64,000 nt of DNA from a virus (taxonomy: Duplodnaviria > Caudoviricetes). Positions 7,907-56,938 of this stretch are shown in pieces; the stretch's first letter is position 1; the number at the start of each line of letters is the position of its first letter. A program made the position numbers and the translations under genes. The DNA is taken from the IMG/VR virus record IMGVR_UViG_3300012983_000040, positions 1 to 64,000 of that record; one strand, given 5' to 3'. Below the pieces are notes generated by a model, which saw nothing but the letters and a program-made list of their open reading frames with translations, did not search any database and was not told the DNA's origin.

Positions 7907-7937
7907 TTTGATGGTTCCAGGAATTTTATTAACTTTG
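7907..7937 (+). promoter_or_regulatory. Intron-internal Bacteroidota promoter
   Basis: TTTG-N19-TAACTTTG, 20 nt upstream of ATG 7958; associated with two GTTCCAGGAA copies. Confidence 0.72.
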
Positions 7938-19826: not shown

Positions 19827-20534
19827 GTGAAAATAACAGCAATTAGTGATTTACATGGACTATTACCACAAATAATGCCTTGTGATGTGGTACTTATTTG
19901 TGGAGACATTGTACCATTAAAGATACAACGAGATGCTATAAGAAGTGAGATGTGGCTTAAAAATGAGTTCTCTAGATGGGTAAACGATTTACAGTGCCAA
20001 CACGTTCTTGCTGTATGGGGAAATCATGATTTTATTGGGTTAGATTTAGGAGACACTCCTTTAGGTAGGGAACGATACAATATGTGTATTGGCAGACCTA
20101 CTAAACATAAGATTGAGTTTCTAGATGGAAACTATGCTAATATTATTGTAGGAGATGAACAAATAACTGTTTGGGGATCTCCTTGGTGTCATACTTTTGG
20201 TAATTGGGCATTTATGGTTAGCGAGGATTCTCTTGCTGAAAAATATAAATCTATACCTAAAAATTGTGATATTGTAATGACTCATGAAGCACCTAAAATA
20301 GGTAAAATGGGAGTTATTACACAAGGTCCTTATACTGGAGAAAAAGCTGGAAGTAAGGCTTTAGCTGAAGCTATTAAAAATGCAAATCCTAAATATGCTT
20401 TATCTGGACATATTCATTCTTCAGAGCATAAATTAAGTAAATATAAGGGAGCAGGTAATACTTTATTTGCAACAGTTTCCTTATTAGATGAACATTATAA
20501 AAATACATATGATCCTTTAACATTTGAAATATGA
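19827..20534 (+). CDS. Metallophosphoesterase (MPPED2/class III cNMP phosphodiesterase-like)
   Basis: ISDLHG, CGDI, GNHD, THEAP and GHIH. Confidence 0.85.
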   Translation: MKITAISDLHGLLPQIMPCDVVLICGDIVPLKIQRDAIRSEMWLKNEFSRWVNDLQCQHVLAVWGNHDFIGLDLGDTPLGRERYNMCIGRPTKHKIEFLDGNYANIIVGDEQITVWGSPWCHTFGNWAFMVSEDSLAEKYKSIPKNCDIVMTHEAPKIGKMGVITQGPYTGEKAGSKALAEAIKNANPKYALSGHIHSSEHKLSKYKGAGNTLFATVSLLDEHYKNTYDPLTFEI

Positions 20535-21580
20535 CATTAGAACGAGTTTTATCTGCATTAAATTTACTAGCATCTAATAAGTGTATTATAGAAGAAAAAG
20601 GAGATGATGCTTTTATGACCTATCTCTTTTACCAATTATTTGGTCAAATTCCATACGTAGATTACTTCTTTGATGATGTCGATGAAGAAGAGGAAGATGA
20701 CGATGAAGATGAATTTATTCCTGAAAAGTTCAGCTATAAAAAGACAATAAATAAACTTATTGAAAAATGTCCAGAAGCAATAGTGTATTCTTGGAAAGGT
20801 TATCGTATAGTAATTACTGATGAATTTATTGTCTGTAGAGCAACTATTTTTCATCTTCATAAAGATAGACCTCAGGTTTGTGTAGATAGTATTGTACTAG
20901 AAAAGAATGATTCAGTCAATCTTATCTATGTTTCTGTAGACTCTAAAGGCAATATGCATAAACAATTAATGCCAATTAAAGAAGCAGAAGTAAATATTGA
21001 AGAGAACTATAATGATGATTGTCCATATACTAAGATTGAGGAAGCTGTAGCTAAGGACAGTAAAAGTACTATACTATTACTCTTTGGATTACCAGGAACT
21101 GGTAAAACTTTCTTATTAAGAAAACTTATTCTTGAGCATCCAGAATTAAAATTTTACTGGTTAGACAGTAGTATGTTTAATATGATTAATAGTACAGAGT
21201 TTTCTGAATTTTTACTTAAATGTAAAAATGGAATCTTCATTATGGAAGATTGTGAGAGTATAATTAAGAGTAGAGATGACTCTTATAATACTCTAATTAC
21301 TCCATTATTACAATTAACTGATGGTTTAATTGGAGATAATTTAGGTCTTAAGTTTATCTGTACTTTCAATACTGATTTACGAAATGTAGACCATGCTTTA
21401 CAACGTAAAGGAAGATGTGCTTTGAGTTACGAATTTAAGAAGCTGGCTAAATCTAAGGCACAAAAGTTACTTAAGAAACTTGGTATTAATGCGACTGCTA
21501 CAGGAGATATGGCTTTATGTGATATTTTAAACTTGCAAGTCGAAAATGGTGTTGAAAAGAAACGTAAAGTGGGTTTCTAA
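20531..21580 (+). CDS. AAA+ ATPase with acidic N-terminal tract
   Basis: GLPGTGKT (Walker A), IFIMED (Walker B) and TFN...ALQRKGR (sensor 1/Arg finger). Confidence 0.88.
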   Translation: MTLERVLSALNLLASNKCIIEEKGDDAFMTYLFYQLFGQIPYVDYFFDDVDEEEEDDDEDEFIPEKFSYKKTINKLIEKCPEAIVYSWKGYRIVITDEFIVCRATIFHLHKDRPQVCVDSIVLEKNDSVNLIYVSVDSKGNMHKQLMPIKEAEVNIEENYNDDCPYTKIEEAVAKDSKSTILLLFGLPGTGKTFLLRKLILEHPELKFYWLDSSMFNMINSTEFSEFLLKCKNGIFIMEDCESIIKSRDDSYNTLITPLLQLTDGLIGDNLGLKFICTFNTDLRNVDHALQRKGRCALSYEFKKLAKSKAQKLLKKLGINATATGDMALCDILNLQVENGVEKKRKVGF

Positions 21581-21722: not shown

Positions 21723-21767
21723 AAGGGGGAAGTGGTGCATTTGCACTGCTTCCCCCTTATTTTTTTT
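21723..21767 (+). terminator. Strong Rho-independent terminator at the convergence of the two blocks
   Basis: AAGGGGGAAGTGGTGCA / TGCACTGCTTCCCCCTT stem with G.U pairs on the + strand, followed by AT8. Confidence 0.85.
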
Positions 21768-24700
21768 ACTATGTATAGATAGGAGATAGTGACATTAATG
21801 TCATAGCTTCTGCTACAGCATTTCGTTGTTCTTCCTGTGTTGGTTCTATACCTTCATGATCTTCAATTTGTTCTTTAAGTTCTTGTCTTTGTTCTCTCTG
21901 TACTTCTGGATCAGTCCTTTGTTTTATGAATGGAATTAAAGTAAATCTATTTGCTGAGAACATCTTTAAAAATCCGTCAGTAATAGTATCGTCTCCAGTT
22001 ATAACTCTCGATAAAACATGTAATGCTCTCGTTATAGTTGATATAGCAAAAGGAGTCCAATTTACACCTCTACCTCCAATTGATTCTAATGGATTAAAGT
22101 CCAAAACAGATGCATCAAAAATAGCTTCTGAAAGAGCAAAAGCCGAATTAGCCATTGCTTGTTGTATAGATCTATCATCTTTATGATCTTTGGTATATGT
22201 ATTAACAAATGTATGTATTTGTCCTCCCACGAGACCGCCTAATATTGTTAATATAGCTATGTCATATGCAAATTGTCTAATATTTTGTCTATATGCAGTT
22301 CTTAAATTCTCGTTAGTATTATTCCAGTACTAATTCTTTACTGCATTTATAATTTCCGTAGGATTTCGAGTGTAGTTTCCATTCGCGTCTTTTAAAGAAT
22401 CGTAAGTTGAACCTACTGGTTGAATTAGACCTGTTCTATTGTTTAATCCTAATGCAAGAGCATCGTTTACCATTGAAGATAATGTTACAATGATTCCTTC
22501 AGAAAATGAACCTTCCCACTAGTAAAAAGGAACTAATATAGATTTATTAATTAACTCTTCTTTAGTCACTGGTGGCTAATCAAATAATATGTTTCCATTA
22601 TTATCTACCTAATAGTAATAATAATTTCGCACCTCTTCCCCATCTTTAATAATAGGTTTACCCTATTCATCTAAAGCTATCTCACTATAATGAGTAAACC
22701 ATCCTCTGTCCTTTACAGAACTTATGGCAAACCACTAGTTTTTCTTACCTGACCAATATGTATTCATCTGCCAGAATAAAGCACCTAAAAGACTAGCTTG
22801 CATCAAAGCTCGCTTTTCGTGTGAATAGTAGCCATAAAGTTTATCTGCCATTGACTTATATGATCTAGCTTGTTTATTAGTATAAGCTTGGGGTAATGGT
22901 TTGTATACGCCTTTCTTCGGTGGTTCTAGTTTAAATTTAGTTCCGTCTGGATATATAGCACCTTCAATTTCAAATTGTTTAGCCATAGCTCTGTATAAAG
23001 CTTCTTGTTCTCTATACTTTGGGTTATTAACATCTCCTTTTACTAGAGTACTAAATCTTGGATCTCGATTAAAATCATAAATTAATTCTCCATCTTCATT
23101 TAAATAATGGGCTTCATAAGTGCCATCGTGTCTCATATATGACTCGAAAATAGTCATTCTGTTATAAAAGTCTGGTCTAGATGCAAATCTGAATATAAAA
23201 CTATTAGTATTTCTAAAAATGTTATGTGAATTTTGAAGGTGTTCTGCATATACATTAATGTCCATATCATTGATTCTATATAGCTAGTTTAATCTTTCTA
23301 ACTTTGTAGGTCTATAATCAAACTTTGTCATTTCTTTATATACATCTACAAATGAAGCAACCATTTCAGTAAGAGTGAATCCAAATCTTCCATCTTCGTT
23401 TCTCCATATTATTCCAATATCCTTATAAATACCTTCAAGTAACTGATAAATTTGTTTTGGGTTAAATCCAAGAGTAACTACAGATGCTAAGTGCATAATT
23501 TTCTAAGCATACTCATATATCTGCAAATCTTTATCATCCATAACTTTTCTACCTAACATAAGAAGAACATTATCTTTTAAGTATTCTAGTTCTGCCTCTC
23601 TTTTTATATTTTGAGAAAACTCCTAAAATATTAAATCAGCGTGTGCTGCTTTAATTAGAGTAAACGCTTTTTCTGATTCTTCTTTCATTTTATACGCAAA
23701 TAGATGCTTTAAGAAAACTGATTGTAAGTCATGATCATATAAACTTAAATCTTTTAGTAGTTCTGCTCGTTGTCTCGGGTCTTCTCCCTAGTCAAATCTA
23801 GTCCTCATTACATATAAGTCGTCTCGTAACTATTTTCCTTCTGGAGTTAAGAGATGCCCCATTTCTTTTTTTATTCTATCTTTAACTACATTCCATTTCC
23901 AAGATAAAAAGTAATCCTTAGCTGCCGCTAATAAACCTTCTGTCTCCAATTTTCCTGCTGTTCCTTTATATGATAGTGGTACTCTAAGCCAGGCCAAATT
24001 TCCTTTTTCCAGCTCTTGTACCATTCTAGCTTCAAAGGCGATATCAGTTTCTCCTCTTTTTTTAAATCTATTAGAATTAATTGTTTTAATTACATACTTT
24101 AAGAATTTTCTTTCAGTAGCTGACAATCTGGTGTTATTAGCATATGGATTTACAAATACCCAATCTTCATCAGGCTTCCTAGTTTTATAATTAGTCATGT
24201 TTTCGTAAATTCTTACTGAGTTTTGGAAAGTAGAATCCCCTAAATATGAAATTTTATTTTCTTTTTTAAGTTCAATTACCATTTTCTGTACTAATGCATG
24301 TGGTTTTTGCATACTATCCGTAACTCTTTTATAGCAGTTGTCAATAAATTCTGTAATTTTATTTAAATTTTTGCTGGCCGTAGTACCAGGGTTATCAGTT
24401 TTAAGTCCTGAGTGTCCTTTAAGTAGTATATTGTTAGAATCTCTCCAGTTATCATATGCTTCAATTTGTTGTTCAAAATCATATCCTAATTCTTCAGCAT
24501 ATGCCCTATGTAACATTTGATACTACATATCTATTTCATCATCTGTTACATCAAAATCTAATCTTTGTAATTCTTTACCAGCGATTCCTTCTCTTATTGA
24601 TTCCATTGACTTAATTGCTTCATATAAAACTTCTGCCATAGAACCAAGTGGTTTTCCTTGATCATTTCCAACAATGTCAATTTCATTATTTTTATTTAAA

Positions 24701-26937
24701 AATAAGTTTTCTATAGGAGTAAGACATTTATTTACTATTAGGTTATTTACTTTAAGATTTCTACCTTGTCTATCGTTTTCGACTATTTTTGTTCCAGTTC
24801 TTAATGTATCCAAAGCCTACTCTGCCATTGTGCAAAATTTTATGTCTCCTTTATGTCCACTATAGTTAATTCTATTAGGTCCAAACTCTTTATCAATATT
24901 TTTATACTTATTTAAAATTTTAAAAGAGTTTAATAACTATTTATTAGAAGCTGTAAGCCCACTATTTAAAAATGGATTAATTACCTTTATACTATGTATT
25001 TTTGATCCTTTAAAAATTTCAGTAGGAACAAAATTTAAAGCTAAAAGTGTTTCTATCATTGCCACATTACCGTGAACTGCATTTAGTAATGTTGCCTCTC
25101 CAGCTTTATCTACAATATCGTTTATTCCTAATGCTTGTGTAATTAATTTATTTACATTTCTTCTATCTACTTGTCCATCAGTTCGTTCATGTGTAAATTT
25201 AATTACTTCAATATTTTTTGTATATTTATTTTTTAGTAAAACAATACCCATTGCTTCTAGTACAGCAGGAATTTCTCCACTGTCTCCATATCCAATGACT
25301 TCATATTGTCCATTTCTAGTATACTTCCTAATAACTTTATCGTACCATTGAGCATCGCCATCTTGATGTTCTAATCTATTTGATGTATTAATAGTTAATT
25401 CTGTTTGATTATGAACAGCTTCTTTAAAATTCTTTGCAGATGTTCCAACTCGACGTTCACATTGAGATAAGTATGCTTGTATTTTTGAAATAAGATCTAA
25501 TTTAGATTTACCATAAATAGTTTTTTCCCTTACCTTATAAGAAAATCTTTGTTCTATATCTTCTGCATCTGGATTTTCTTTATATTTATGATTTGGGTCC
25601 TCTATAAATTCTTGTATGTCTTTAATGGACCAGCTAATTTCTTTAGACTTATATGCAGTAAACCACCCTAAAAGAGTGTTCTTTATTTTTTTTAGTATAT
25701 CCTAGTCATCTAACTAGGCAATAGCTACATCGACAAATATAGTATCGATATTATCCTAAATGTGATTATACGACACTTCATTCTTAGTTAAATCATCGAT
25801 TAGGGGTTTATTAGTTTCAATGTTTTTAAAATTCCAATTTCCGTCTGTTCGTGTATATCCTACTAACTATATTGGAGCAACAAGTACACTAATATTTCTA
25901 AAAGTAGGATTTATTTTTCTTAGCATACGTGCATAGGTTGCTAATTGATATGTAAAAGCTCGTTTTTTAGCAGAACTATATTCATCTGGTGCTAAATCTT
26001 CTACTGCTACATCACTTTCGGCTTCTCGCCAATAATCTGCAGGTGATACTTTATAATCTATAATAAAAGCATCGCCCTCTGGTGGTACAACTAATAAATC
26101 AATCATACCTGAGAGATTAACATTTTCATTTTTTGATGGATCGTGGGCAGTAGTTCTTAAAGATAATTCTGGAAAATATAAAAAGTGTCCAGTACCTTTA
26201 GGATCGTAAGTAGATTCTATTGTAACTTTTAATTTTTTACAATAATCTATTACTTGTTTCATCTATTTTTCAGAAAGTAGAGCTTTAGTTTCTGGTAAGG
26301 CACGTTTTTTAAAAATATTTAGTATATGATTTGAATCTAAATCTCCAAATATTGAAAAATTATTATCTTTAAAAGATTGCCTACTAAAGAATATTTCACA
26401 GAGATTATGAATTGCAGTACCTACTTTAGCTTCGTGTTCCCATTTTTCTTTTTCTATTTTAATCAATCTGTCAATTAATTCTTGGGCCATTATTGACGGA
26501 GTATTTCCATCTTTAAATTCAGGTTCTTCTGCAAAATCAGCTAATTCTTTTTCTGTAAATCTTTTTCCTGTAGAATTTCTCCAAGATTCTATTCTTGTAT
26601 TAAAATAATTTTCTTCTATAAATTCTGGAAATATTAATTTTCCTTCTATTCTCAAGCCTGATAGAAATTTTGTTACCTAGGTACGTGTTTTATCAATTAT
26701 TTCAGTACTCTAGGACTATTTATTATATGATCTGACACTGTTATAATTTTTATAATCTTTACTTTTTCTAACTATAGGTTCAAGCTAATCAATAGTATTT
26801 AATTGAGATAGGGTATGTTCTTGGAATACTGTATCTCCATACTTATCTAGTAACTTATCTCCACCTGATAGTAAAAAATCGTCTAGTTCTATCTCAGAAT
26901 TAAACAATATATTTTTATAATAATGTTTACAATTCAT
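21766..26937 (-). CDS. Giant virion cargo protein F (~1723 aa, TAG=Gln) with PD-(D/E)XK nuclease domain
   Basis: Eight track fragments share one frame. Starts MNCKHYY and ends PIYT-TAG-TAA. Contains GTAIH...GMIDLL...IDYK...YQLATY. Confidence 0.8.
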
Positions 26938-26938
26938 A

Positions 26939-28015
26939 TTAACATATTTCTTTTAATTTTCCTGATTTTAATAAGTCAGATTTATAATTATTTAGTAATC
27001 TGTGAATAAATGAGTTGCTCATTGTTCCTGTCATACTATTAAATATTTCTCTAGAATTTACTAATTTAGCAACTTTTTCAAGAGTTGATTTATAAAGTAT
27101 ATTACTGTCAATAATTTTATTACTAAAGTCTCCATTTAATATACTATCTAGTAGTCTTCTAATATTATAATCAAGTTCATATTTTTGAGCATTAGACATT
27201 TTGGAGAAAGAAGATTCTCTTCCTGCAAAGAATTTTCCTAATTCTTCAACTAAAACTTCTTCAGCTCTATCCATTTCAGTTCTATGTCTGAATTGGTTCA
27301 TTTTGTATCTAATATTTTCATCTTGAAGAACAATATTAAGTAAATCCTAATATAACTTTGGGTTTTCAAATCTAATGCCTCCCATAAAAAGATGCATAAG
27401 TTCATGAATTTTAGTGTCAGGAGTTGCATTATCAGTATTAATATATATTTCTCCATTCCTAATAAAACCTCTTAGTGTGGCTGCTCCAGGAAAATCGGGT
27501 AAAGTTGCTATATCTTTAGTAGTAACCTCATTAATTTTTATTCCATGCATCTCCTATGCTCGAGTTAATAAGTTACTAACTGCTCTATGTGCAATTGGCA
27601 TATCCGAGACGGGATCTATTTCTTTTGGAGTTATAGATGGACGTTTCTAGGCATTTATTAATACTTCATCGTCTATAATATTAATTTCAAAATTGTAATC
27701 TTTATGCAGTTTATTTAATTCTTGAGCAATTTCTACTTCAGTTTCCTTTCCAGTATATTTTTTAACTAGCTCTAAAGAAGTATAGTAATTATCTCCTATA
27801 GGGTTTAATTTTAATCTATTTTTTAGCTATGTAAATGAGTCCACCCCTATATTAGGGGGGAACTCATCTACATTAGGCAATCTATTAAAATCGTGTAGCC
27901 ATTTGTCAACGATTGAGTAAAATAATTCTTCCTACTCTTTAGTATATGAGTCTGGAAGTATCTGTTGTTTTAACTCTTTAACCTAATTAATGTCTGTAAT
28001 ATCACAAAAATACAT
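26939..28015 (-). CDS. Cargo protein E (358 aa, TAG=Gln) with zincin-like HExxH motif
   Basis: MYFCD start; GFIRNGEIYIN...TKIHELMH; ends LKEIC-TAA. Confidence 0.8.
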
Positions 28016-28016
28016 A

Positions 28017-31000
28017 TTATATACAATTTTCTCTTATCATAGTAGAAGCCTTAGCCACAATAGCTAAAGGATTTACTTTAAAAATAAAACCTCCATTTTT
28101 ATCTATTCCAACTTTTAATATCTTTTTTAATTCTTTTTCTGAAATAGTTAGTTCCTTATTATACACTTTATTGTTGAACGAATTTAATTTAATAGTAACT
28201 TCAGTTTTATTATTATTTTTTATTAATTTAGCTGAAGCTACTCCATTTCCAAATCTTATTGAAGAGTATTTATCAAAATTAACTTCCGTGTCCATTTCTG
28301 GTGTATCATAATTGGATGTCCATACATTATCTACTAAGAAATAGTCATACTATCCCATATACCCATATGCCATTCTAGAACCTTCAAATTCATCTATTTC
28401 TTCATTATCAACTTTTTCAGTTTTATTTAATTTGTATATATCATATCGTAATGTCTATCTATTAAATCTATAATAATAAGGAATGTTTTTACTAGAAGCA
28501 TTGGCGGCATTTAGTTCTGTATCGTGAGGAGCTAAAGCTATTTCCAACATTTCTGTAGTATAATCTACTCCTTGCTAGAAGTCATAATTAGTATCCATAT
28601 GTCCAATAAAGTCATAATAACGTTTAACCGCATTATCTTCATTAGTTTTAACAAATGGCTCAAACATAGGAGTCAAAGATTTACCTCCACTCTCGTTTCT
28701 AAAATTGATTAAATTATAGTAAAATAGTAAATCTGCAATATTATATCCATTATCATCAGAAACTTTATAACGTTTTGTTCTTAAATCAAACAAGTCCATT
28801 TGATATTTAGAGAAAGCGTCCTATTCTACATCTGATTTTGGAATCATATCTATTGGAAGTGTATGTACAGTAATATTATTTCTATCTGCTGTTCTATTAG
28901 AATATGATTTAATTAAATCTCTTAAAAATGTATTTACGTTTGTCCCGTCAGCACCTAACACTCTAATTGTTTCTTTATTCTATTTTTGTGTGACACTAGG
29001 AGAGAATAATAGTCCTTGTTTAGATAATCGAGGTAGAACTTCTGTATTCATCCAGACCCTAAATGTTTCATTCCCTTCTCTTGTACCTAATTCAATATAA
29101 GTTGGTGTATCATATACTTTATAATCCATTGGATTAATTGGTCCTTCACCATCAGGTTTACTAAATATTTTATTGTGGGCTGGAATTTCTATATAACTTA
29201 CTTCTTCTCTTAAAAATGCATTAGTCATTAAACTGTTAATCCAAGTTTCTCCCTTTTTATAGAAAGTTTCTGCTTTTTTACCTGTTAATCGCAGTTTATT
29301 AGAAACAAAAGGTAGTATGACTTTTAACATCATTCTATCTTTTAGAGAATTTCCAGTTTGTGCAAATATAACATTTGCAGTCTATAAATACTAATTAAAG
29401 TGTGGGACATTTGTTGCTACCCATAGAGGATTAAATGACTATTTTATATAATCATCGTAGGCTTTAATAACTTTATTTCTATAACTAAGATCTTTAAAAA
29501 ACTTCCAAAAATCTATTAGAAGATCATCATTTTCTAATAATTCTGCGATAGTTTCTTTTGTTTCCTTAGATAAGTTCTTTCTTTGAGCTCCTTCTTTAAT
29601 TATTCTAGTAAAGTTATTATAAAATCTATAGGCTTCTTCAGTCTTTGTTTTTTGTCCTTGATTTAGTCCTAAAAGCTCACGTAGTTTTCCCATTTCATGT
29701 TCACCTGCTTCTAGAGTTTTAAGATTTTCTAAATCCGCCCACATGTTTCCTCGTATTTTCTACTCTTGAGTTTCAGGGTCTAATTCATATCCAAATTCTT
29801 TTATATGTGAATCCGCTATTTCATGAATTGCGACAGCATATGATATTAGATTATCTATACTACGTTTTCTTGATATCTCATCGTAACTATACCCTCGATT
29901 TCGATAATTATTTTCTTTATATTTACGTTTATCTGCTGCCTTTACTCCTTCATTTAATTGAATTCTTCCTTTTAAAAGTTTAAGTCTCTATAAGTATTTA
30001 TTGAATTCTCCAGTCTTTGTTACCTCTATTACTGTATCACGGACTCCATTCTTTCCTTTTAAAATAAAGAGAGAATCTAGTGATTTACCATCAAACTCAA
30101 TTCCTTGTATACCTAATCCTAATTCATTAAACTAAGTATTCATTAATTTTAAAGCAGTAGTAGAAATATTAGTATTAGTTAAAGTCTTCCTATCTTTACT
30201 TAAAATATCAAGTATTTTAGAAGCATATTTAGTAGAACCACCATCGGTAAATATGTTTGACTTCATCATTCTAGATAATACCTGTGCTGTTTGAGAAGTC
30301 ATTATTTTGAAAATATCTTCAAATTCCATACCTATAGCAATACCATATAAATATAATCCAGCTAAATCTGAACCAGCATTTAAACGTTCTAATTTTAACT
30401 CTTTAGCATTATCTGTCGCTAGTGTCATAATTCCTGAATCGTTAGATCCTGCCCATTCTGTATGGTTTATTGACCGCTCATATAATGCATTAGCAATATC
30501 ATTAGGAACTCCTTTAGATACTAGTTTATCTATTATTTCCTATTTAGTTCCTTCTCCAAGATAAATATCTGGTAAGGAATAATAGTGTTTATCAGTTCCA
30601 TTTTTACTCTTGATTACAACATCAAATAGTATATTACTTATGTTTGCATTATTCGCAATAGCATTATTAGTTGCCTAAGTAGTTGTGTGAAGAACTTTCA
30701 TTCCAGCAGATGCGGCTATACCAATAACACCTTTTCCTGTATGGTTCTAGTTTAAAGCAGCTCCCATAATAGAACTATTTCCAGGTCTACTATCCTATGG
30801 TCTAGCACCTACATTAGAATCTTCTCCTAACTATTTAGGTTTAGCAGCACTCTAATCTACTGTAGTTCCGGCAGCTATTGCGTTTGCAGGAGCTTCTGCA
30901 ATTTCTATAGTTTTCCAAGCTACGAAATTTTTTGATATATTCGTTTTTTCTTCCTTATTTACAACATTAATATAATTATTGTGTTTATTAATGAATACTT

Positions 31001-34000
31001 GGAGAGCTAATACTAAGTCTTCATCTTTTAAAGTATTAGGATCATAATAAAGTTTTGCTGTCCTATCGTACTAATGTTTTGTAAAGTATTGCTATTGTGC
31101 TTTCTTTACATCCCTTAATAGGTTAGCTAGAAGTTCCTACTGTTCTCTAGTTCTGTGTGACTTTAATTTATATTTTAACTATTTCTTGGATACTTGATTC
31201 TAAGTATTATTAATTTCAGAATCAGTAGTGCTAGATGTATCATTACTATTCGCTTCTATATCTTCTTCTGATGCATTAGAGGTATTCTATTTATTTAATT
31301 CAAATAATGATATATACTTAGAGTAATCGATACTATTATAAGTTCCTGACTCTAAAACACTTTTACGCCCAGTTGGGTAAGGTAATAATCGTAACGATTC
31401 TTCTAATTTTGTCCAAGAGTTCATCTAAAAATAAGGACTCCATGCCGAGAACTCTCCAGCTTGATTAAATGCAAATCCCATAAATGTTGCTTTATCTACA
31501 TCATAGTCAGAGCCCTATAGTCTAATCTATTCAGCACTTACATAACAGTCATTAACATCTGATTCTGTAAATCCAACAATTTCCATCGCCATAAAAGACT
31601 ACATTCCCTATGCAGGAATACGTGCTACCGTAAATAACTATGAAAGGTTAAAGGCTGCTCTCATCTTTTTTGCACGATACTTGAGCTTATTATAAAAATC
31701 TGCATAATTTTTTTCAAATTCAGATTCTATTATTCCTCTATCTTTTCCCGGAGTTTTTAAATATTTTATAATAAGATTAACAAATTCTTCCTACTTTTTT
31801 ATGTATTCATTAAAACTTCCACATTTTTCGATTAAAGATTTTATTTTAGTGCATACATATTTATTGTCAATCTCATTCAATGCTTGCATAATAGTTTCTG
31901 AATTACTAGAATTATTAAATTCTATATCAACATAATTTAGATTTGATAAATAGAAAGCTAAATTATCAGTAGAAATTATTTCTTGCTTTGTAATATTATC
32001 ATAATATATAGAATCTCTTGTACTTGATAGTGGGTATAATTTCTCCGTTGGTTTCCAATCATTCATTCTAAATGTACCATCATCATCAGTAAAAGTTTCA
32101 ATTACTTGTTTATGTAATTTACTTGAATGACTTACTTCTGGAGATTCTGAGTATTTTAAATAAATATGTTTACCGTCAGCTCTTTTTAAACATATATCAT
32201 ATAATGTTTTATCTTTATCCTTCTGTCCTGGATTACTAGTTCCTATATAATTTTCTAATAATCTATTCAAGAAAAATTTACTATTAGTCATAATGTCCGA
32301 TAAAGTATCTCCTTTTCTTATACCAAACTAAGTAGCATAAATTGGGGGTAATAAGGCTTCAAACTTTTTAACATCATAAGAATTTACTTTGAAATCTACA
32401 ACGTTCATATTCTCATCATAAATTTGTAGATTTTTGAATCCCTAAATAGCTAATAAGTCCTTTTGTAGAAGTCTTTCTTTCTATACTTTATCAAGAACTG
32501 GGATATCTGTTTTTAGATCTGCAACATACATCCACAATTCTTGTAATTCTTGTTTTACACCGTATTCTTTAAAAGTTTCCTCTAAAGCTCTTTGAGGGTT
32601 ATATAAACTTCCCTCTCTCTGTTTAATTCTAGATAATGACAATAATAATTTCTACTATATATCTCCTAAGATATTATCCTAAACCACTTTGATGTCATAT
32701 CTATTAGCTTTAAGAGGATTCTAATTTAGGCTGTTAATGCCATTTATGTGAATATTGTGACTTCCTAAATTTCTTCCATATAGATCTATTTTTTGTACAG
32801 ATAATATGTTATCCTCAAAGTCATTAACGTCGGATATTCTTACGAGTTTGTTTTTAATTAATCCAGTCTCTTCTTCAATATATGTTACTTTAAAAAAGTT
32901 AAATTGATTATTATCTGCAATGATTTGATCCTTGATGTTTTTTAATGATTCCTTCTACCTGGTAGTAGCCTCATATAAATCATTTGATACGGTGGTTCTA
33001 TCATATACTTTACCCTCTTTGTAAATTATTTCATTTAACGAATAATTAAGTCCTGCCAATTTAAATTTCCATAGGTAATAGTAATCTGAATTTCTTAAAT
33101 GAATTAACTATCCATTAAGAGGGTGAATTTTAGTTGTATTAGTTAAACTATCTATTTCAGGTTCAATAACTATTTCATATGTTCGCCCAATTTCAGTTTG
33201 AGGAAGTTTTATTCCTTTAGGTAAATACTACTAAATTCGTTCTAATTCATTAAAAGTCTCTATTTCTGAGAGCTGTTTATTTCCGTACACTTTATACTGG
33301 TCGTGAGATGGATTTAATACAGCTAAAACTCCATATAATTTTGTGCGGATGGCTTTTTTATTAAGTGAAGAAGTAATAACAGTTCTTAACATACTATACG
33401 TAGATGGATCACTAAAAGCAAACACACCTTCAGTGTCTTTAAAGTTTAAGTGTTTACCCTACTTTGCTTCAGAGATTAAACGTTCAGCTATTGCTCTTGG
33501 TATATTTGCTCCTCTAGTTGCACTAGATGTATGAACTAGTTCGTCTATAATTAATTTAGATACAATTTCTTGTAATCCAGCTCTATCATTAGTTGAAAAA
33601 ACCTTATTTAATTCGGTCATAGAATCTGCTATTGTCAAGCTTGTTAGTGCAGCTAATGCTTCATATACTTCTTGTGCTTTTTCTTGAGTATATCCACGTT
33701 CAGACAAAGCAGAAATAACCTAGGTCATCATTGAAACAGTAGATTGGTCTGCCTCGTGAGTAGGATCTAATTGAATACCAGCATCATACATATCTGTTTT
33801 AAAGAAGTTAAGATCTTTATCAGTAAAATAATCAGCTTTAGAATTAATATTTGCTGCATATTTTTTAATAGCACCTTCTGTAACTACATAATGAATTTCT
33901 GACTCTTTCATTGGTTGCCAATATAGATCAGCATTACGCATTACACGGTTATCTCCTTGATATGTAAATTTCTTTCCATGCTATTCTGCCTCATGATCAT

Positions 34001-37000
34001 ATAGTAGTTGTTGCAAAGTACCATTTACTCTTTTAAATCTAACTTTACATGCAGTATCAGCTACTATTTTTATAGAATTTTCAGAATATTCAAATTTTCC
34101 ATCTTTATTTATAGTAACACTATTATATTTACCTAGAACTTTCCAAAAATCATAATTATTATTTATTTTGACCGTCTTTTTTTCTTCTACAAATCCGCCA
34201 TCTTCTATTAACCATCCATCTTCAGAATTTATGTTACGTATTCTTGTTTTGACTATATAAGTATTTTTAAGTCTTTCTTTAACTTCTGGAGCTACTTTTT
34301 CTGGAGAAAATACCTTTTCAAATGATACAATTTCTTTAACTACTTTTTTGCCTTTGTATGTATCATAATACATTGCTCCAGATATTTCTTTATCTACTCC
34401 AAACTACATTCTTGCTATTCCAAGAGGATTTGCTGGGAATTTATTGTTTGGTGACTAAGGAAATAAAGTTAAATTTACATCTAGTTCATTTCCATCTGGA
34501 TCTGTCCATATGTGATGAGACATTTTCCAATGAAGTCTTTCCTGGGCAAATGAGTTTCTCATTTTTGCGTTAGTTAAGGCAAAAGTAGCTGTTTTAATTA
34601 ATTCTCCAGCAACAGTTCTTGGATCATATGCTCCTATAATAGGTTTTTTTGTTACTCCAGTAATTTGATTATTTAGACTATAGTTTTCCCAATGATGCTA
34701 AAATGCACTTACCCAAGTTGCTCCATCGTATGGTTTTACTGTTTGAATATCTCCCATAATACCAGAGCATTCTGCTATTACATCTTCTAAGACAGCTACA
34801 TTTACCTTAGCTAAAGTTCCCCAAGTATCACCTAAAAGATACTATAATTTTGTTGCAGATGTAATTACATTTCTTTTATTATTATCAAACCATTTATAGC
34901 TTTCTTCTTGTAGAGTATTCGTACCTTTTTTTGCATCAGCCCATATATGGGAACCAACACTAGTAAAGGAAGATAAAGTGGACCAATAAAATGAATTTAA
35001 ATTAAACTATTCAAATATAGGATTTACCTTTATTCTAGCTTTTTTACCTTTATATTTAAGATTTAGTTGACTTAATTTAAAGTTATTTTTATAAAATTCT
35101 ATTTTATTATTATTATTATCAACTCCTTCTAATATTGCCAAGTCTGCGCGTGTAGATAACTATACTGGATTTAATATATATTCTTCCTTAAGTGATTCTT
35201 CGTCTATTCTAACTGGTATCTTTTCATAAGCAGTAACCCACTCACCATTATCGTTCTAAACCTCTACAATACCAAAAGCCATTCTATCCCAATTCTAAGT
35301 GAACCATATACTTGCAAAATCAGACACTAATTCTTTCTAGGCTTCAGGTCTTGTCATTCCGGTCTGTTCTAAGACAAGTAATTTCTGTTTGTACTCTGGA
35401 ATATTATTAAATATACCATATACGCTGTGATATAGCTCTGTATGACCTTCTAGAGCATGTAAATCAATGACTACATCATTTTTTAGAAGATCTGAAATAA
35501 ATTCTAAATTACTATCTTTAATAAATTTCTTATATGAATCTTCTACAAAATTAGTTGTTACAGCAATGTTTCCATCTTTGTCAATAAATCTATTAATAAA
35601 TGATTCATACGAAGAACCTAACTGTTCTTTTGTGTTCTATGCTCTTATAAGTCCGAATATAACTGAATTCCATTCTAAATTTTTATATTGCTCTTTAATC
35701 TGCTCTAAAAGAACTTCATATTCTTTTGCAACTTTATATCCTAAATTAGTTATATCTTTACTTTTAATGGTCAATTTATCTATTCTCTCTTGATATTCTT
35801 CTGGAGATAATAATGTAAATCGACTTAAAGCTTCTATAAATGAAAATCCTAATTCTAAATTGTGAGTTTTGCGATTAACATGATAATGTACGTTATTAGC
35901 AAAAGCAATTGGATTATGCCTGTTTTGAGAATTATGTAAGAAGACTATTTCTCTAAATTTATCAAATGGGTCAATACCCTATTTATGACACCATTCATTA
36001 AATGAAGTAAAATTATCTCTTATTGATAATGGTATATCCGTATTATACTTATTATCGTATGTTTTCTTAATAGTTTTGAAATCATTCTCTATATTAATAA
36101 AACAATTTCGATAAGTGTCTCCAAGAGTATATTTAATTTCTTTTTCTGCATCTTCTGCAGTTAAAATTTTAGCTAAATCAATTATTACTTTTGGAACATT
36201 TGGTTTATCCGAAGATACTGATTCAGTAAATCTAGGATCCCATTTTCTTCCCATATATACAGGAAGTAAGAAATCCATAACAAAACTACTGTAAGCACTC
36301 TCCTTAAAGTTAAAGTCTTTATGTTGTTTTGAGTCATATCCATTAACTCCCTCTCTAGACATAGCGTATCCTTTAAATGCAGGCATAAATTCTCTAATCA
36401 TAATATTTACAGGGTCCAAAGCATTTACGTAATTCGATATTCTAGAAAATTTTTCTGCAATAAGCATTGAAGATTGCCCAATAGTTAATGATGTATTTTC
36501 GGCAGTTCTAACTTGAGTTTTAAAGGCTTCACCTCGAACTAATGTTTGTGCTTCTACAAATTCCTCTAGCATATTACTTACTCCAGAAGAAATTAAATCT
36601 ATGCCCTAGTAATTTCTACTTGTTCTTAAAGATTTCTAATCATCACCATACCAGTCTTTTATTGCTTCATCATAAGAAAATTCTGTTGGATTTCCGATTT
36701 CAAATCCCTTATTCAAATACTAATTTAACTATTGATGTGTTATATGATCAGCTCCTGCCAATCCTCGCATTCTTAAAGTATCTATATCTACTACTTCAAT
36801 GTCCTTATTATCTTTTTTAATAGTTTTTGTGTATGGTTTATCGTTTTCTGTAGTATAGAATTTAAGTTCTCTAATTAAATTATTTTCTAGAATACGAACA
36901 GTATACATCTAATCATTTTTTAGCGTGCCTGGTCTTTGAATAATTGAAGGATTTGCTTTCTTTTCTCTAAATAATTTAATATTTACCAGAATAGGTAAAG

Positions 37001-39101
37001 TAGAATTAATAACATGAATTGCGGCTCTATTAAAATCATACTTCTAATCAGCGTTCCTAAATTTATCTAAGAAGGCTATTCGCAACTCTTTATTATTTAT
37101 TAAATCTATCTATAATATATCTTTTGCCCATTGACATACTACGTTGAAGTCTGTTTCAGTAAGTACTTGGTCTAAATCTCCAGTTCCGTTTTTACCTCTT
37201 GTAAACAACTAAAAAGGAGTGTCTTCTCCTGCTTTATATTTTGATAATATCCAAGCATTCTTAAAGTTAGGCTATCTAGTATCAAACGAGAATCTCCAAA
37301 TATCTCCTGCAAAATTCTTTAGCTCAGCTGATACTCTTCTTATGGCCTATCCGACTACTTCATTTCTTTCGGCTATAAATTGTGGATTTTTATATTCACT
37401 ATTTACATTATACTTTACTAGAAAATCATCACATTCTCCGGCTACAAATTGAGAATTAACACTCTCTTTAAATCTAGATAAATTAGTATCTAGCTATCTT
37501 GGATTTAATGTGTCTAGAGTAATAGTTCCATCATCTCTAATTCTATACTAAGTATAATCTATAATAGATGTTGTATCAAATAACTATGCTATCTGATTAA
37601 ATATTCGATTAGAAGTAGAGTAAACTGAGTTTCGGTCCTTAAATAAATAATGATGTAGATTGTCAAACACTCTTTTCTCTATTGATGATTTAAATGGAAT
37701 ATTTAATATATTTCTAGTATCAAATAATAATTTTAAATACCATGCCGAATTTCCCCTTACTTTATTAACAATGTCTTGTAAGTAAATTCCATATCTTCCC
37801 TTGCCTAATTGAACACCTTTGTCTTTAATTAACTGGGCTATTTGTCTTTTGTAAATAGAACGTTGTTCAAGTGTTACATTATTGTATTTATCTATGTCAA
37901 TAAGTTTATTATTAGGCTTTAGAAGATTAATTATACTATCTAAATCCAACTAATGTGCGTCATCAGTATTAACATAGAATAAAGCATCTCTATTGTATAA
38001 ATTATTAAACCGAAAATCTCTTTTAATAATCTGGGTAAAATATACAATGTGATCCTTTTTTAAATATACACCCGTTTCTGATTCAGAATTATTAATATTA
38101 CTTAAAATTGGAAAACTTTCTATTAATATTTGTAGACTTTTTGGAATTACATCATAAGCTCCTTTTTGTTGTAGATCTTCTTGTTGCCACGTTAATATTT
38201 TATTAGCATCTTCTTTAAGGTTAAATTCATATTTATCCTAATCACATACTAATTTATCCTTAAATTTAAATCTAATTAAAGTTTTAAATTCACTAATTAG
38301 TAGTGAATCAAAATGTTTAAGAATAAAGTAAGCATTATAGGCTGTTAATTTTTTTAAAAATGTTTTTTCACTAGTACTCCTATGTCTCCACATAGTTAAT
38401 GTAGTCGTATTTTGTGAAAAATTATAGAAATTTTTAAGTTCTTTATTAGTGTTAAACTAGAAATAATCATCTAATTTAGCAATAGTTACATCATCTCCTT
38501 CCCGTAAATTTTTAGGTAAATTATTGTTTGGGTCTATTTGATTAATGTACTCCAATATGTCTTCATACATTTCCTACTGAACTGTATGTATTTGTTTGTT
38601 TAGTGATTCATTATTTCCTAGAATTTCTTCTTCTTCTTTTAAATTTAACATAATGTCGTTTATTAATTTTCTCCTAAAATATTTTAACATTACGTTAGTT
38701 GCAGAAGTATTCATATAAACTCTCTCAATAAAGTTAGATGTCTATAGAGTATTTCCTGTATAATCCTAAACAGTGTCTGCAAGGGAGTCATTTACTGACT
38801 CCCTAACAGATTCATATGTTTTATCTGGAAACATCCAAGAAAAAATTTCTTGTTTAGTTGTAGGTGTGTCTCCAATAGAATTTATTAATTCATAAATTGT
38901 ATTAAGTGCTTCTTCATTGTACTCATACTCTACAAACTCTGGGGTTTGAGCAAAATCTTGAATTTCACGTTTCATATCATCAATAAATTCCTACTTTTCT
39001 TCTGGAGAAAATTCATTTTCTGGGTCTATTAATGCTTCCTAGAATGTTTTAAGTTGGTCTATAATGCTTTCATAGCCTTTTGCGCATGTGATACTTAACA
39101 T
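28017..39101 (-). CDS. Virion-packaged double-psi-barrel DNA-dependent RNA polymerase (~3694 aa, TAG=Gln)
   Basis: ARIPA(TAG)GM(TAG)SFM...RL(TAG)GSDYDVDK at 31622-31491 gives the DxDxD catalytic motif. All track fragments from 28017 to 38975 share one frame. Confidence 0.88.
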
Positions 39102-39102
39102 A

Positions 39103-42100
39103 TTATATACATTTTAATATATCGGTTAATTCTTTAAATCTTTCTGGAGTAATCTGTTTCTTTATCTTTAGCATTGTAAATTGACTCTTAAGCCAAGCTT
39201 CTGGACTCTTTCCCTAATTCTCTAATATTTGAGTTAATATTTCAGCTAGTTTTGGTATACTATACTTTCCTGGCTCAAACTGCCCTTCTGTAAGATCTCT
39301 AATTTTATTATATAACATACTAAACTCTGTAGATTCAGGAGTAATATCAAATTGTTTATTAGAATCTGAGTAAACTGGATCAGTTATAATAAAATCTTTA
39401 ACTATTTCATTCAATCCCTCAAAATTTAATGGTAAGACTCCTTCTTTTAATACTTGTAGAGCTTCATTGCCTTCTAATATTTTGAAGTGTCCATCTAAGC
39501 TACCCCAAATTGTAAGTCTTCCATTATCTAAATCTAACATTGTTAAAGTATACTCGTTTCCATTTAAAGTATATTTAATTGGGATTTTAAAGTCTATTGT
39601 TTTTCTATTTAGATTTTCTGAATCAGAACTATATATATAATCATTAGTTTCTGAAATAAAATTCCAATCTCGGTCATCCAATGGATATTTGTCATATAGT
39701 AATAGCTATCCATCAGTAGTTAAAACATATGTGCCTTCTTTAGTAGAGAAAAATGTCTTTACTTTATATTCATCAAAATCTATTGGTTCCTCTAAGTCAT
39801 ATTTAACTACACCAATCTAATCTACTGCCTTTGATTTTAATGCTACAGTAACAGGATCTGCCATTACTACTCTTTCAGGTACACTATAATTTAAATCTGT
39901 TAAAGGCTTTGATTCTTCTGGTTTATTTAAGGGACTATCACTAAATGTTATTATTTTATCATTATTGATATTTACTTTATAATATTTAATTCCTTGTCCA
40001 CTGAATTCCTGCTCTAAAATTAAATCTTCTTCAGTAACTTGGGATAAATCAATTTGATTTTTCTTATCTCCCATATCTTTTACTTTATAGATTTTAAAAT
40101 CTTTATTAGGATTTTTTAAGTCTTCTGAATAGATAACCAACCACTGATTGTTTCCTAAGTTTATTGTGTATGTACTTGGAATATTTGTTATATTTATTTC
40201 TGGACGTCTTAATACATCTAAAAGAGATGATCTAGAAACTCCTAATACGTTACGTTTTTCAGTATGATCAAATATATCCGCATATCCTGTAGGAACTCCA
40301 TTTTGTAGAGTTCTTAACATTGAACCTTGCCCAATTACTCTTCCATTAGATTGTTTTTTATTCATTCTAAGTACCTAATCAAGTATAGACATTAAATTTC
40401 CTACTAATGGACCACTTGTTATAATAGAAGCATACTAAAATGGACTATCTTTATAAGTAAATCTTCCATTACCCTAAGTTGAATCTGTAATTACTCTATG
40501 AAATTCAAAAGCTTCAGTATTAGATGAATTATTGCTAAGACGCATATGTACAGTATATGCAGGATCTTTCTCATATTCGGGATTGTATAATAGTGCCTAA
40601 TCTTTAGCTGCCTCTTTTATGAAAGCTCTAACTTCTTCCATTGGGTAAGATTTGTACTACTCATTTCTTCCCATATCTTCTGGTGCATAAATAAACTATA
40701 AGAACCTTCTGAGAATAGTCCGCAATTGGGCTCCCTAAGTACCGTCCTATTTATTAATAGGCTTAGTCTTCATACGATCAATAATTGCATTCACATAACC
40801 TTTATTTTTATAATCTCCAGACTGCAACCACTAATCTAACTCTCCCTTTATAGTACTTGGTAATTCTCTTTCGGCTATATTATATATATCCTAAATTTTA
40901 GCCTTACGCTCTTCACTTATCTGTCCTTCAACATACGACATTTTTAGTATTTCATCTCCTATAGATTCTAAGTTATATAATGGATCAAAAGATAATGTCA
41001 TAACGGCACTACATACTTTATTTATAGGAGAATCTTTCCCATTAGTGTAGTGCGCTGCAAATACTTTCTAAAGAATTCTATAAATTGTGAATTGATTACC
41101 TATATCTTGACGATTATCTGTGTCATTTTTTCCTTTAAATATATTCTCGTGTTCAGATTTGATAAATGCATCAAAATCCGTTTGAGGTGGTCTAACTGCA
41201 ATTATTTTTACTTTAGTAGGAAGTGTTGAGTCCTATAACTACTTATCTAGATAATTAAACATTTCAGTCTCATCAAACTAACCATCTAAAGTCTCAAAGG
41301 CTCCTGCATCTGCTATTAATATGTATTGAGCACCCGTTTTTAAAATAATTCCATTTTCGTTGCCTATTTGTGAATAAGAACCCTGTCCAATTACTGTATA
41401 AATATTAGATACCTATTTATCGGGTTCTTCGTAGAGTCCTCTAACTTCATGTAATGTTAGTCTTTCAGTACTTAAATCTCTAGCAGTTGCTTCATATCCA
41501 TCTGCCTAATAGTCAAATCCTCTGTCACTAGCAGAAACGAACCATCCAAGACTTTCAAATAAACCATTTTCATGTGTTGGAGTTTTTACTAATTGAGTTG
41601 CAGGATGTAATAGATATGCTTCTCTAGAACCTCTCATATAGAAGTCTATTAATTTAATAAAAGTAGCAGCTCCCAATGGTGGATTATTTTTATTGTTTTC
41701 TATTAAGTCTAATAAATCATTATATATTTTTTCATCCTATCCATGTAGAGTTAAATTCTTTAAACTTAATCCTTTTACAATTATATCCTATACCCGAGGA
41801 TCTAAAGCATTTTTACATTTATTAAATAAAGTTCTATAATTAGGAATTGTTGCTACAGGAATAGTGAGATATACAATATCTTTTCCTTTCTCTGCTCCCT
41901 TTTTACCTATTACTAATAAAACTTCGTGTCTATTTACTTCACCGTTCTTATCTCCGAATCCTTTTGGACCCCAAGCTCTTTCTCTTTCTCGGTCTACATT
42001 TAATTGTTGTCTTGTTTCTAAATCGTTATATTTATTAGTATATGCAGTTACTACGTATCGCATTGAGAGTTCTTCAAGAGTACATTTATTAGTTCCTGAT

Positions 42101-45100
42101 AAATTTCCTAACTCTAATAGATCATATATATTATTTAAAATGTCTTTATTATCTTCTGTACGTACATAATGATGTATTAATGTGATTATTTTAATAAGTT
42201 GATTTTCTATAGCTGTCTTTTCTTCATTAGATAAGTTTCCACTTTCTAACTTCTAAAAATCAATATCTAAATAATCTGTCTTTCCCATTAATTTAGCTAA
42301 CTGTCTAAAACCATATACACAGTCGCGTCTAGCCTCTATATCTGTACGATTAGATAAAAGTCCATCTGTTGTTAGACCTGTACGTAAAGCATTAAAGGTA
42401 TATAGAACATAATTTAGGAATTCTGCTTCAGTTTCAATTTCCTTTCCATTTTCATTAATCCATTTTGTTTTTTTATTTTTTGTAGTTTGTATTGTAATTG
42501 GATGTTTTTCTTCCAGTGTTTTACTTTCATGTATAGATAAATTAGAGAATCCTGAAAGGCCTAACTACTCTCCACCTTGTTCTGGCTCAGTTGGATCGAT
42601 TTTATGTCCTTTTACTTCAAATTCAGCTCCATTGGTTCCAGTACCATTAGAACTTCCAGGTGTTACTTCTCCTGAAGTTCCATTACTTTCAGAAGCCTAA
42701 TTTTCTTGGGTTTTAATTTTTATTGTTTCAGGAAACATTTCCTACAATAACTATTTAAAGTCCTGTGACCTCTTTGCCACAAATGACTCGGGCATAGCTA
42801 TTTCTTGTGTGTTTGAATCTGGATCATGGTTTGCTAATTCTAAGTTGGGAACATTTCCTGTAATATTATCAATGATTACTGTTCCTTTCTTTTGTCTTGT
42901 TAATCCAGTATAATATTCTCGTAATAACCTTTCTATTTCAGGAGCATCTTTTTGATTAAATCTAGTTGAAAATCTAATATCATTTAAGTCAATAATATAA
43001 TAATTGTTTTCTGAACTTTTAAGGGTAGTTCCTTTTCTAAATTCAGTTTTATTTTTCCACTCTGGATGCTCTTCAGTTATATATTTATACGCAAGACTAT
43101 TATCATTTGAATATATTAATGTAACTTTTTCTCCATCTTTCAGAGTTTTATACATTCCATTAATGTATTTTTTTGCATTAGCATCTAAAGTTGCACCTGG
43201 AGAAATATAGGTTCCGTAAAAGTTTTCATTCTATTCATCAAAATAATAATGTGCTGTGTATTTGCCTTGAATTGTTTCCTCTGCTCCTGTAAAAAAGTTA
43301 ATAGCCCCCTCAATAAAAGCACGCAGGGTAGTGTTATTTACATCTGTCTATGTATTTGTACTACGATAAGATAACTAACTCTTAAAGCTTCTAATAAATT
43401 GTACATCTCTAAGTCCTAAATTGTGAGTTTCTAATATAGGATTTTCAGCCTAATCTTTTTCTCCTTCATTTACTTTTATCGTTCCGTAAATACCAGACTG
43501 TGTAAAGTCGCCATGTGCTAATACAATAATTCCATTTTTAGTAGCAAAATCATCAAGAACTGTCATATCGAATTGTGAAAATTCTGAAATTTCATCGACA
43601 ATTATAATTTTTGGAAGCTGACTTAAACCTGTATTTAATTCATAGTCAAATTTTACATCACCGGTTTCATAATCCAATTCAAATATTTTTTCAGTTCCAT
43701 CGCTATTTTTTCCAGTTAATTTACCATCAGTTACTTTGAATGTTTCATCATAGGAATCAAAATTCTTAAGAATCATTTTCATTAAAGTCTCTCGTGTAAA
43801 AGTCTTAGAATCTTTAGCACCAATGCTATCTCTCATTTCTATAGCTTTAGCTTCTGGAGTATCTCCACTAGTATTTTCTGGACCACATATCCATAACCTT
43901 TTATTTTTATCAAAATTAGGTACTATCTTTTCTATAAGACTAACTAATTCAGGAATATATGTGGATTTACCGAATCCTGGTCCAGAACTAACCAGCACAG
44001 TACTTTTAAATTTTGGATTTAAAAATAATGATAAGAATTCCCTAGCAAATTTTTTCTATTCTTCTTCTCTTTTAACTAAATCTTCACTTGTTAAATCTGG
44101 ATAGTCTACCTTATAACTTTCTATATATGCTTTCCTAAAATTTTCAAACATTTTAGGATTTACAATCATAGAAATTGCTGTATATTTCCATGCAGTCTAA
44201 ATAGCTGATGGAAGTCTATTTTCATGTAATGAATCTTTTAGATTACTATAGAAAACTTTTGGATCTAATGCAGCAATAGAAGCTAAATACCACATTATAG
44301 CTGAGTCATCTTCAAGTTTATCTGATTTATTAAGTGCAACAATTCTATCTGTAAATGTAAAATTCTTTTTACTAATAAAATCAGCTAACTTAGTCGGATC
44401 ATTTAATATTTCCTAATTTTTACTAAAGAATTTGTGTAATGCTATCTCAAAACTAATAAGCTCTTTAGTTATAGCTTCTTTTACTTCTTCAGATGTTGAA
44501 TCCAATCTATGTTCTACCTATTGATCCTTTAAATTATTAAAGTTAGTTAGTTTTGATATAGCATTTTTAAATTCGGATATGCCATTCCAGTTTAGTTTAG
44601 ATTCATTTTCAAGAATACTAATTTTATTAGCAATCTATCCCATTAGATTCAATCTAAAACCTAAGTCTGCCCTATCCATAACTTCTGTCCTAAGCTACAT
44701 TGCATTAGAGGCAACTTCTTTCCAATAAAGTAGTTTATATATTGAATTTTGTATATTGTCAATTCCTTCTGCTACTCTGTCAGCTGAAATTGTTATTAGC
44801 TTTTCTGGGATAAGTTCTGATTTAGTTTCTTGTGATAGCTTATTTGCTGTAGCATTAAATCCTATATGATTAAATATAGATTCTACTTCTTCTGTTGCAG
44901 CAGCATAACTACTTCTCAGCATCTGTAAAATCAATATAGCATCATTAATATCAGAAATTAATGTATTAGATAAGATAAATTCATCAGTTTTTGTTAATCT
45001 ATCCATTAAAAAGCTTACGGGCTTATCTGTTCTAGCATTAATTGCATCATCAACTTGTTGTAATATACTAGATATACTTTTAGTATTATCACCCGTCATC

Positions 45101-56895: not shown

Positions 56896-56903
56896 ATTAT
56901 AAC

Positions 56904-56938
56904 AAAAAAGGAGCATATAAATTAATATACACTCCTTT
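56904..56938 (-). terminator. Terminator-like hairpin between small gene L and gene A
   Basis: 13 bp stem (two G.U pairs that form only on the - strand) with a U-rich tail. Confidence 0.65.

Follow-up and report, generated by a model that had tools for sequence, protein, structure and literature searches.

Conserved terminal cysteines in the RNA polymerase cargo block of crAss-like phages and a candidate end-to-end protein tether

Podovirus-like phages have to move megadalton amounts of protein through a channel of 3–5 nm while keeping the correct order and ratio, and how they do so is an open question that extends to crAss-like phages, the most abundant group in the human gut. The analysis concerns a minus-strand gene block in a stretch of 64,000 nucleotides (nt) of viral DNA (Duplodnaviria; Caudoviricetes), positions 1 to 64,000 of the IMG/VR record IMGVR_UViG_3300012983_000040, which is referred to below as the window. 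Four consecutive genes, termed C, RNAP, E and F, code for proteins whose facing ends carry a cysteine (Cys) on both sides of each junction; the second is a putative giant virion-type RNA polymerase (RNAP). By motif and gene content, the four most likely represent the RNAP-associated cargo block of a crAss-like phage with recoded TAG, and gene order and composition suggest that their products would be packed into the virion and delivered to the host.

Terminal cysteines in the window

With the standard code the region contains only short open reading frames (ORFs), and reading TGA as tryptophan leaves the giant genes closed. Translation of TAG as glutamine opens a tight minus-strand operon of giant genes with 6–76 in-frame TAG codons per gene and 1–2 nt between a stop and the following start. 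Across the late/cargo block (21766-63998, minus strand) every large gene needs this reading, with 4–76 in-frame TAG codons each, and plus-strand ORFs listed in the same region (19827-21580) have none.

Gene C (39103-49155), an ORF of 3350 amino acids (aa) under the TAG-as-glutamine reading and the first link of the chain, starts with MGIRKQYDW, which has no Cys, and ends in LKCI, the penultimate residue being Cys3349 (codon 39109-39111). The RNAP gene (28017-39101; 3694 aa), a middle link, starts with MLSITC (Cys6, 39084-39086) and ends in ENCI (Cys3693, 28023-28025). It is followed by gene E (26939-28015), a second middle link coding for a zincin-like protein of 358 aa that starts with MYFC (Cys4, 28004-28006) and ends in KEIC, where Cys358 is the last residue (26942-26944). 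The last link, gene F (21766-26937; 1723 aa), starts with MNC (Cys3, 26929-26931) and ends in PIYTQ, again without Cys. The codons at all six facing termini, each with one Cys, were verified, and both TGT and TGC are used. The pattern is exactly that claimed by the first-pass annotation, with Cys at the three junctions and none at the outer ends. The interval that it had assigned to the chain, 26929-39111, has the Cys3 codon of F and the Cys3349 codon of C as its limits, but the whole chain occupies 21766-49155.

The four proteins contain 6 (C), 13 (RNAP), 2 (E, both terminal) and 7 (F) Cys residues, altogether 28 in 9125 aa (0.31%), so that they were rightly described as Cys-poor, but F has seven Cys rather than about four as first counted. 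At this background frequency, the chance of finding a Cys within 6 residues of the N-end or 9 of the C-end at all six termini is about 1e-10. The cargo-module proteins of the window contain 0–13 Cys in 190–3694 aa (0–0.41%) versus about 2% in neighbouring ORFs, and the giant proteins of related loci contain 0.44% versus 2.1% in their neighbours. A cargo-module protein of 638 aa without any Cys, encoded upstream of C and outside the chain (49158-51074, minus strand), represents a negative control with tight junctions: its junction with C has a gap of 2 nt and Cys on neither side. Thus, close stop–start spacing alone is not the source of the pattern.

The RNAP is a putative homologue of phi14:2 gp66 and crAss001 gp50, giant proteins with a two-barrel RNAP and its catalytic DxDxD motif. 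The motif is DYDVD (31494-31508) in the context LQGSDYDVDK at residue 2532, which matches GSDFDVDK in crAss001 gp50 and DFDID in phi14:2 gp077. Searches of the four proteins against Pfam returned only a weak AAA_19/SF1-helicase-like P-loop match in C (residues 1718–1887, 43495-44004) and a PD-(D/E)XK nuclease domain, PDDEXK_1, in F (residues 164–342, 25912-26448), while PHROGs provided no name for any of them. A phmmer comparison of the window proteins with crAss001 gp45–gp50 produced nothing at E<1.

Conservation and co-variation with gene architecture

A search of IMG/VR with the E sequence alone found no relatives, and an alignment of E was required. The 80 IMG/VR loci found with it, together with ten contigs, make up the set of 90 related loci, which use the standard code, TAG as glutamine or TGA as tryptophan; these and further loci cited below are numbered with the prefix L. 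Homologues of E form 29 clusters of 32–97% identity. A Cys is present at residue 3–4 in 28 of the 29 and as the last or penultimate residue in all of them, and most carry only these two; in the exceptional cluster, as well as in an apparently late-starting IMG/VR group, GTG starts restore M-x-x-C. The HExxH motif of E (HELMH, 27392-27406) is kept throughout, with H204, E205 and H208 invariant across 30 sequences. GTG starts overlapping or abutting the upstream stop were observed in chain genes of four loci (L013:9989-10000, L016:9989-10000, L009:9890-9905 and L098:3815-3830), where automatic gene calls, by starting at an ATG further downstream, lose the N-terminal Cys.

A full HMMER search with a 1200-aa core of the RNAP, which itself has no match in Pfam or PHROGs, retrieved 566 homologues, mostly of 3000–4500 aa. 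Among the best 150, 128 representatives of at least 2800 aa and mutually less than 50% identical were analysed. They have a mean Cys content of 0.38%; 126 of 128 carry an N-terminal Cys (residues 3–7) and 123 of 128 a Cys in the last five residues. Five of the seven exceptions were followed. Two are mis-called starts with the true N-termini V/M-S-K-C and M-E-I-T-R-C, and the other three lack the C-terminal Cys and also have no downstream chain partner, so that these five fit the rule. In sum, terminal Cys are kept in 96–100% of homologues. No conserved His, Cys, Asp or Glu was found beside the terminal Cys in the RNAP family.

Three RNAP homologues of 3100–3536 aa (L100:2985-14611, L101:1124-12507 and L102:2796-12116) are located among bacterial-looking genes (exonuclease VII, ParE toxin, aminotransferase, lipoate ligase, Mrp/ParA) and not in a phage cargo operon. 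They keep the N-terminal Cys and lack both the C-terminal Cys and a downstream partner, and in two of them a small upstream protein (333 or 262 aa) ends with Cys, leaving a pair on the partner side only.

Homologues of C were not found by a family search with its C-terminal 550 aa, and the records of relatives were searched instead. In three relatives the C homologue has no Cys at its N-terminus, and the preceding protein ends without Cys. F has an N-terminal Cys in all loci examined and a C-terminal Cys in none. De-duplication of the tight junctions in the 90 related loci leaves 105 at which both facing termini carry Cys, and resolution of start codons adds three, making 108 distinct junctions. 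Only two tight junctions lack Cys, and these are the borders of the chain, with the protein before C and with the gene after F. Across the chain the Cys is placed at residue 3–7 from the N-end and 1–9 residues from the C-end.

The pairs also follow changes in gene architecture. Where a gene is split further, each new junction has its own Cys pair, as in a five-protein chain with links of 333 and 549 aa; in split links of 333, 549, 977 and 1352 aa the terminal Cys are the sole two. Fusion points have no Cys, as in gp33 of Flavobacterium phage Fpv1 (whose only Cys among 4401 residues is at position 4400), cr50_1 gp059, L089 and L090. There is also no Cys where the RNAP gene is interrupted next to LAGLIDADG ORFs; there the downstream frame resumes the catalytic motif without a start codon. 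The absence of a start in the second exon and sub-threshold group I intron hits beside the endonuclease ORF indicate that the interrupted RNAP is a continuous protein. Rfam at the gathering threshold reported no intron in five loci, and the endonuclease ORF of L048 is flanked by sub-threshold group I matches with E values of 0.005 and 0.75. Tabulation of the terminal Cys in orthologs, including split and fused lineages, had been proposed with the first-pass annotation, and its outcome strongly favours the prediction: pairs are conserved and are gained at splits, fusions and introns lack them, and no outer end has a Cys.

The inserts with LAGLIDADG endonuclease ORFs cut the RNAP gene of relatives inside the catalytic motif (LQGSD before the insert and Y/x-DIDxV after it). 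They were observed at L001:14205-15242, L006:5651-6680 and 7738-7929, L013:5629-6664, L048:5432-6520, and L077:1582-1886 and 3034-4437. A second recurrent insertion site lies directly before the conserved NAKEL motif.

The same rule holds in crAss001, phi14:2, DAC17, crAssphage (ZA), crAss002, cr50_1, cr7_1 and Fpv1, and thus in families without detectable sequence similarity to the window proteins. In crAss001, the one Cys of gp47 lies 3 residues from the end of that protein, while gp50 has C5, C2404 (of 2412 residues) and one internal Cys, and gp49 has only C5. In phi14:2, the single Cys of gp078 is its last residue, the RNAP gp077 has only C3 and C2179, and gp076 only C3. Exactly one Cys, which is terminal, is present in crAss001 gp47, phi14:2 gp078 and gp076, and crAss002 gp32, and the single-Cys proteins of these phages have one Cys in 1349–4401 residues. 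The crAss001 proteins gp47, gp49 and gp50 were identified as virion cargo by mass spectrometry, several copies of each being present per virion (PMC10172136). The three phi14:2 proteins were likewise proven to be virion proteins by mass spectrometry, and gp077 is the crystallised virion RNAP (PDB 6VR4). The first protein of crAss001 and of DAC17 is read from one strand and the remaining two from the opposite one, and in crAssphage and crAss002 the paired termini lie about 140–170 nt apart. The two-protein systems of crAssphage, crAss002, Fpv1, cr50_1 and cr7_1 have one C-terminal Cys in the first protein and one N-terminal Cys in the second, which makes the minimal unit intermolecular.

The GenBank starts of the crAssphage ZA RNAP (L092:10668-10740), annotated at a non-ATG codon giving ILLYIS, and of crAss002 gp33 (L094:11926-12030) look too far upstream. 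An internal M-S-C, 22 and 32 codons downstream, respectively, is the likely start and fits the terminal Cys rule.

Nature of the link and competing explanations

A link between the facing termini is indicated by three regularities: a Cys flanks every real protein boundary on both sides, the outer ends are free of it, and so are the places where the chain is continuous. Conserved as it is, and changing in step with gene architecture, the rule supports the proposal, made on first reading of the window, that C, RNAP, E and F may be linked through facing termini in gene order; the metal bridges that were proposed along with disulfides are less likely, there being no second conserved ligand. A disulfide would be the simplest chemistry for a single Cys per terminus. 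It is also favoured by the presence of intermolecular disulfides in crAss001 particles (PMC10172136), by the Cys-poor composition of the remaining cargo and by the very short overhangs, which would leave the joined chain nearly linear. From these sequence patterns we consider the odds to be somewhat in favour of an end-to-end disulfide chain that joins C, RNAP, E and F head to tail.

In such a chain the facing Cys would form intermolecular disulfides, producing a linear thread of about 9,100 residues. With the Cys near the chain ends, the joints would have almost no side branch, and therefore the unfolded thread could pass through the narrow portal and the channel of the tail. The cargo of crAss001 must pass constrictions of less than 50 Å partly unfolded (PMC10172136), and the ejection proteins of N4 behave as beads on a string (PMC13434306). 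In some phages the same cargo proteins are fused into one polypeptide (10.1101/2020.03.07.982082), which shows that physical continuity is tolerated or useful. A single thread would fix the order and stoichiometry of delivery, and the remaining cargo is kept Cys-poor, presumably against other cross-links. The bonds would probably form inside the finished virion, and the reducing host cytoplasm would then open them, releasing the polymerase, the zincin and the helicase-like and nuclease modules. We infer the bond chemistry, when the bonds form, which way the chain is threaded and that reduction releases it. Whether crAss-like phages and their Flavobacterium-phage relatives deliver the polymerase cargo in this way, as a covalent disulfide daisy chain of two to five giant proteins, up to about 9,000 residues long, that goes through the tail in a fixed order and is released reductively, appears to us evenly poised.

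Several points weigh against the disulfide chain. Given the reducing cytoplasm in which virions are assembled and the anoxic gut, the bonds would have to form inside the particle or after assembly. The disulfides of crAss001 were seen in aerobically purified particles (PMC10172136), and neither the paper on the crAss001 structure (PMC10172136) nor the preprint on the phi14:2 RNAP mentions such a link. Cys depletion is not absolute, since RNAPs of the window clade have a median of 11 internal Cys. The choice of a disulfide over another thiol-based bond is drawn from the pattern, as is the pairing in gene order, for which C-end to C-end contacts or a third protein would be alternatives.

An unlikely alternative to the disulfide is another thiol chemistry at the same pairs, either a shared metal ion or an enzyme-made thioether or thioester. 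It is compatible with the pairing rule, and a zincin-type domain is always present in the chain, but each terminus has one Cys with no conserved His, Cys, Asp or Glu adjacent in the RNAP family. Moreover, a two-thiolate site would be unusual for Zn or Fe, and no candidate ligase is conserved beside the block.

It is quite improbable that the terminal Cys bind partners other than the facing termini, namely a capsid, portal or tail protein, other cargo, or another copy of themselves. The sequence does not by itself reveal the binding partners, and the several copies of each cargo protein in the crAss001 virion (PMC10172136) would permit homotypic dimers, but this explanation accounts neither for the Cys-free N-end of the first and C-end of the last protein, nor for the paired gain of Cys at splits and the loss of both at fusions.

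A role after ejection, in which periplasmic Dsb oxidation would lock an ejectosome conduit or the Cys would act as a redox signal of arrival, is very unlikely. Suppression of Cys in N4-like ejection proteins was attributed to their passage through the oxidising periplasm (PMC11445570). However, the polymerase has to reach the cytoplasm, N4-like phages work with zero Cys, and pairing in gene order is not predicted by such a role.

E and the RNAP have Cys at both ends, and both ends of E are short flexible coils in the AlphaFold2 (AF2) model, so that the middle proteins could in principle be closed on themselves by a disulfide between N-end and C-end, with the two end proteins paired together. 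The two-protein systems, in which the minimal unit is intermolecular, make this self-closure highly improbable.

Finally, the idea that the Cys codons arise incidentally from a nucleotide signal at stop–start junctions, such as one for translational coupling, for which TGTATATAATATG common to two window junctions could be cited, is practically negligible, since it is refuted by the opposite-strand pairs of crAss001 and DAC17 and contradicted by the spaced pairs of crAssphage and crAss002, the tight Cys-free junctions at the chain borders, the variable positions of the Cys and the use of both TGT and TGC. Two further candidates were rejected. Split inteins and protein trans-splicing would require, at the end of the first protein, an N-intein of about 100 aa whose first residue is Cys and, at the start of the second, a C-intein with a +1 Cys behind it; the placement of the Cys so close to both chain ends leaves no room for either. 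Bacterial lipoproteins need a signal peptide of about 15–25 residues ending in a lipobox Cys, and the N-terminal Cys of the window proteins is at residue 3–7.

Thioredoxin genes are located a few kilobases from the cargo block in L009 (17502-17756, minus strand) and crAssphage ZA (L092:25115-25408 and 26125-26394, minus strand). Their products could serve ribonucleotide reduction or bear on the thiol chemistry of the cargo.

The zincin module, neighbouring genes and known systems

A zincin-like HExxH motif in a protein flanking or fused to the RNAP is found in E of the window, crAss001 gp47, crAss002 gp32, the crAssphage ZA protein annotated as zincin, Fpv1 gp33 and phi14:2 gp076. The AF2 model of E has a predicted local distance difference test score of 88. 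No clear match was found by Foldseek against the PDB or by a wide VIA-align search, where the best Z was 4.5 (to a sub-domain) and that to the zincin-like TM1509 was 4.0, and hhalign of the E family with the C-terminal 500 aa of gp47 aligned the HExxH only and was not significant. The assignment of E as a putative zincin is therefore based on the motif and the literature. The position of HExxH varies by family (window 26939-28015; L010, L091–L097): it is found at the C-end of the protein preceding the RNAP in crAss001, crAss002 and crAssphage, after the RNAP in the window clade and Fpv1, and within the last protein, close to its N-end, in phi14:2 and cr7_1. A placement of the zincin always just before a Cys junction, as for a possible release protease, was rejected because of these differences.

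Beyond the 638-aa protein, the operon contains a gene of 1946 aa (51076-56916, minus strand), also an ORF under the TAG-as-glutamine reading. Its first ATG (56896-56916) would give MLLFCYNMAQ with Cys at residue 5, and translation may truly begin at the second ATG, codon 8 (MAQVI). The gene is placed outside the chain because the preceding protein ends without Cys.

A conserved end-to-end tether, if true, would be a simple physical answer to the problem of ordered and proportioned protein ejection. It would explain the free splitting and fusing of cargo genes in evolution, gene fusion and disulfide linkage being interchangeable solutions that keep the cargo in one piece. The Cys rule can itself be used to mark true protein termini and start codons, to distinguish introns from real gene splits and to pick out the giant proteins of the ejected set in uncultured phages. 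The RNAP-associated cargo block and Cys suppression in ejected proteins are already known. The conserved terminal pairs and the proposed tether appear undescribed, as no description of terminal Cys pairs or disulfide-linked cargo in crAss-like phages was found in the full-text literature, subscription-only papers being outside the scope.

The closest known systems are crAss001 gp47/gp50/gp49 and phi14:2 gp078/gp077/gp076, which share with the window block a giant protein with the RNAP catalytic motif in the same context, an HExxH zincin module within the chain that has giant proteins on either side, and the terminal Cys rule. The crAss001 and phi14:2 proteins are proven virion components, and the same is predicted for the window proteins from gene order and composition. 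The window proteins have no phmmer match to crAss001 gp45–gp50 at E<1, as noted above. The window chain also differs from both systems in having four links, with a separate 358-aa zincin-like protein after the RNAP, a helicase-like first link, a PD-(D/E)XK last link and TAG read as glutamine.

Schitoviridae (N4 gp50–52, DEV gp71–73) also have a giant virion RNAP with near Cys-free companions, and their ejection proteins must go through the tail unfolded (PMC11445570, PMC13434306); the suppression of Cys was attributed to the avoidance of unwanted oxidation (PMC11445570). The window cargo is similarly depleted in Cys. However, in N4-like phages suppression is total, with no conserved Cys at the termini or elsewhere, and the polymerase is one chain of 3,400–3,500 residues, whereas the window keeps one Cys per facing terminus and has the polymerase block split into several proteins. 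Bonds between different polypeptides do exist in crassvirus particles: inter-subunit disulfides of the crAss001 virion occur in the gp57 dimer and in the ring and tail-hub proteins, at the tail and portal vertex (PMC10172136). Those bonds staple the static tail and portal vertex, whereas the link proposed for the window would join mobile, ejected proteins end to end.

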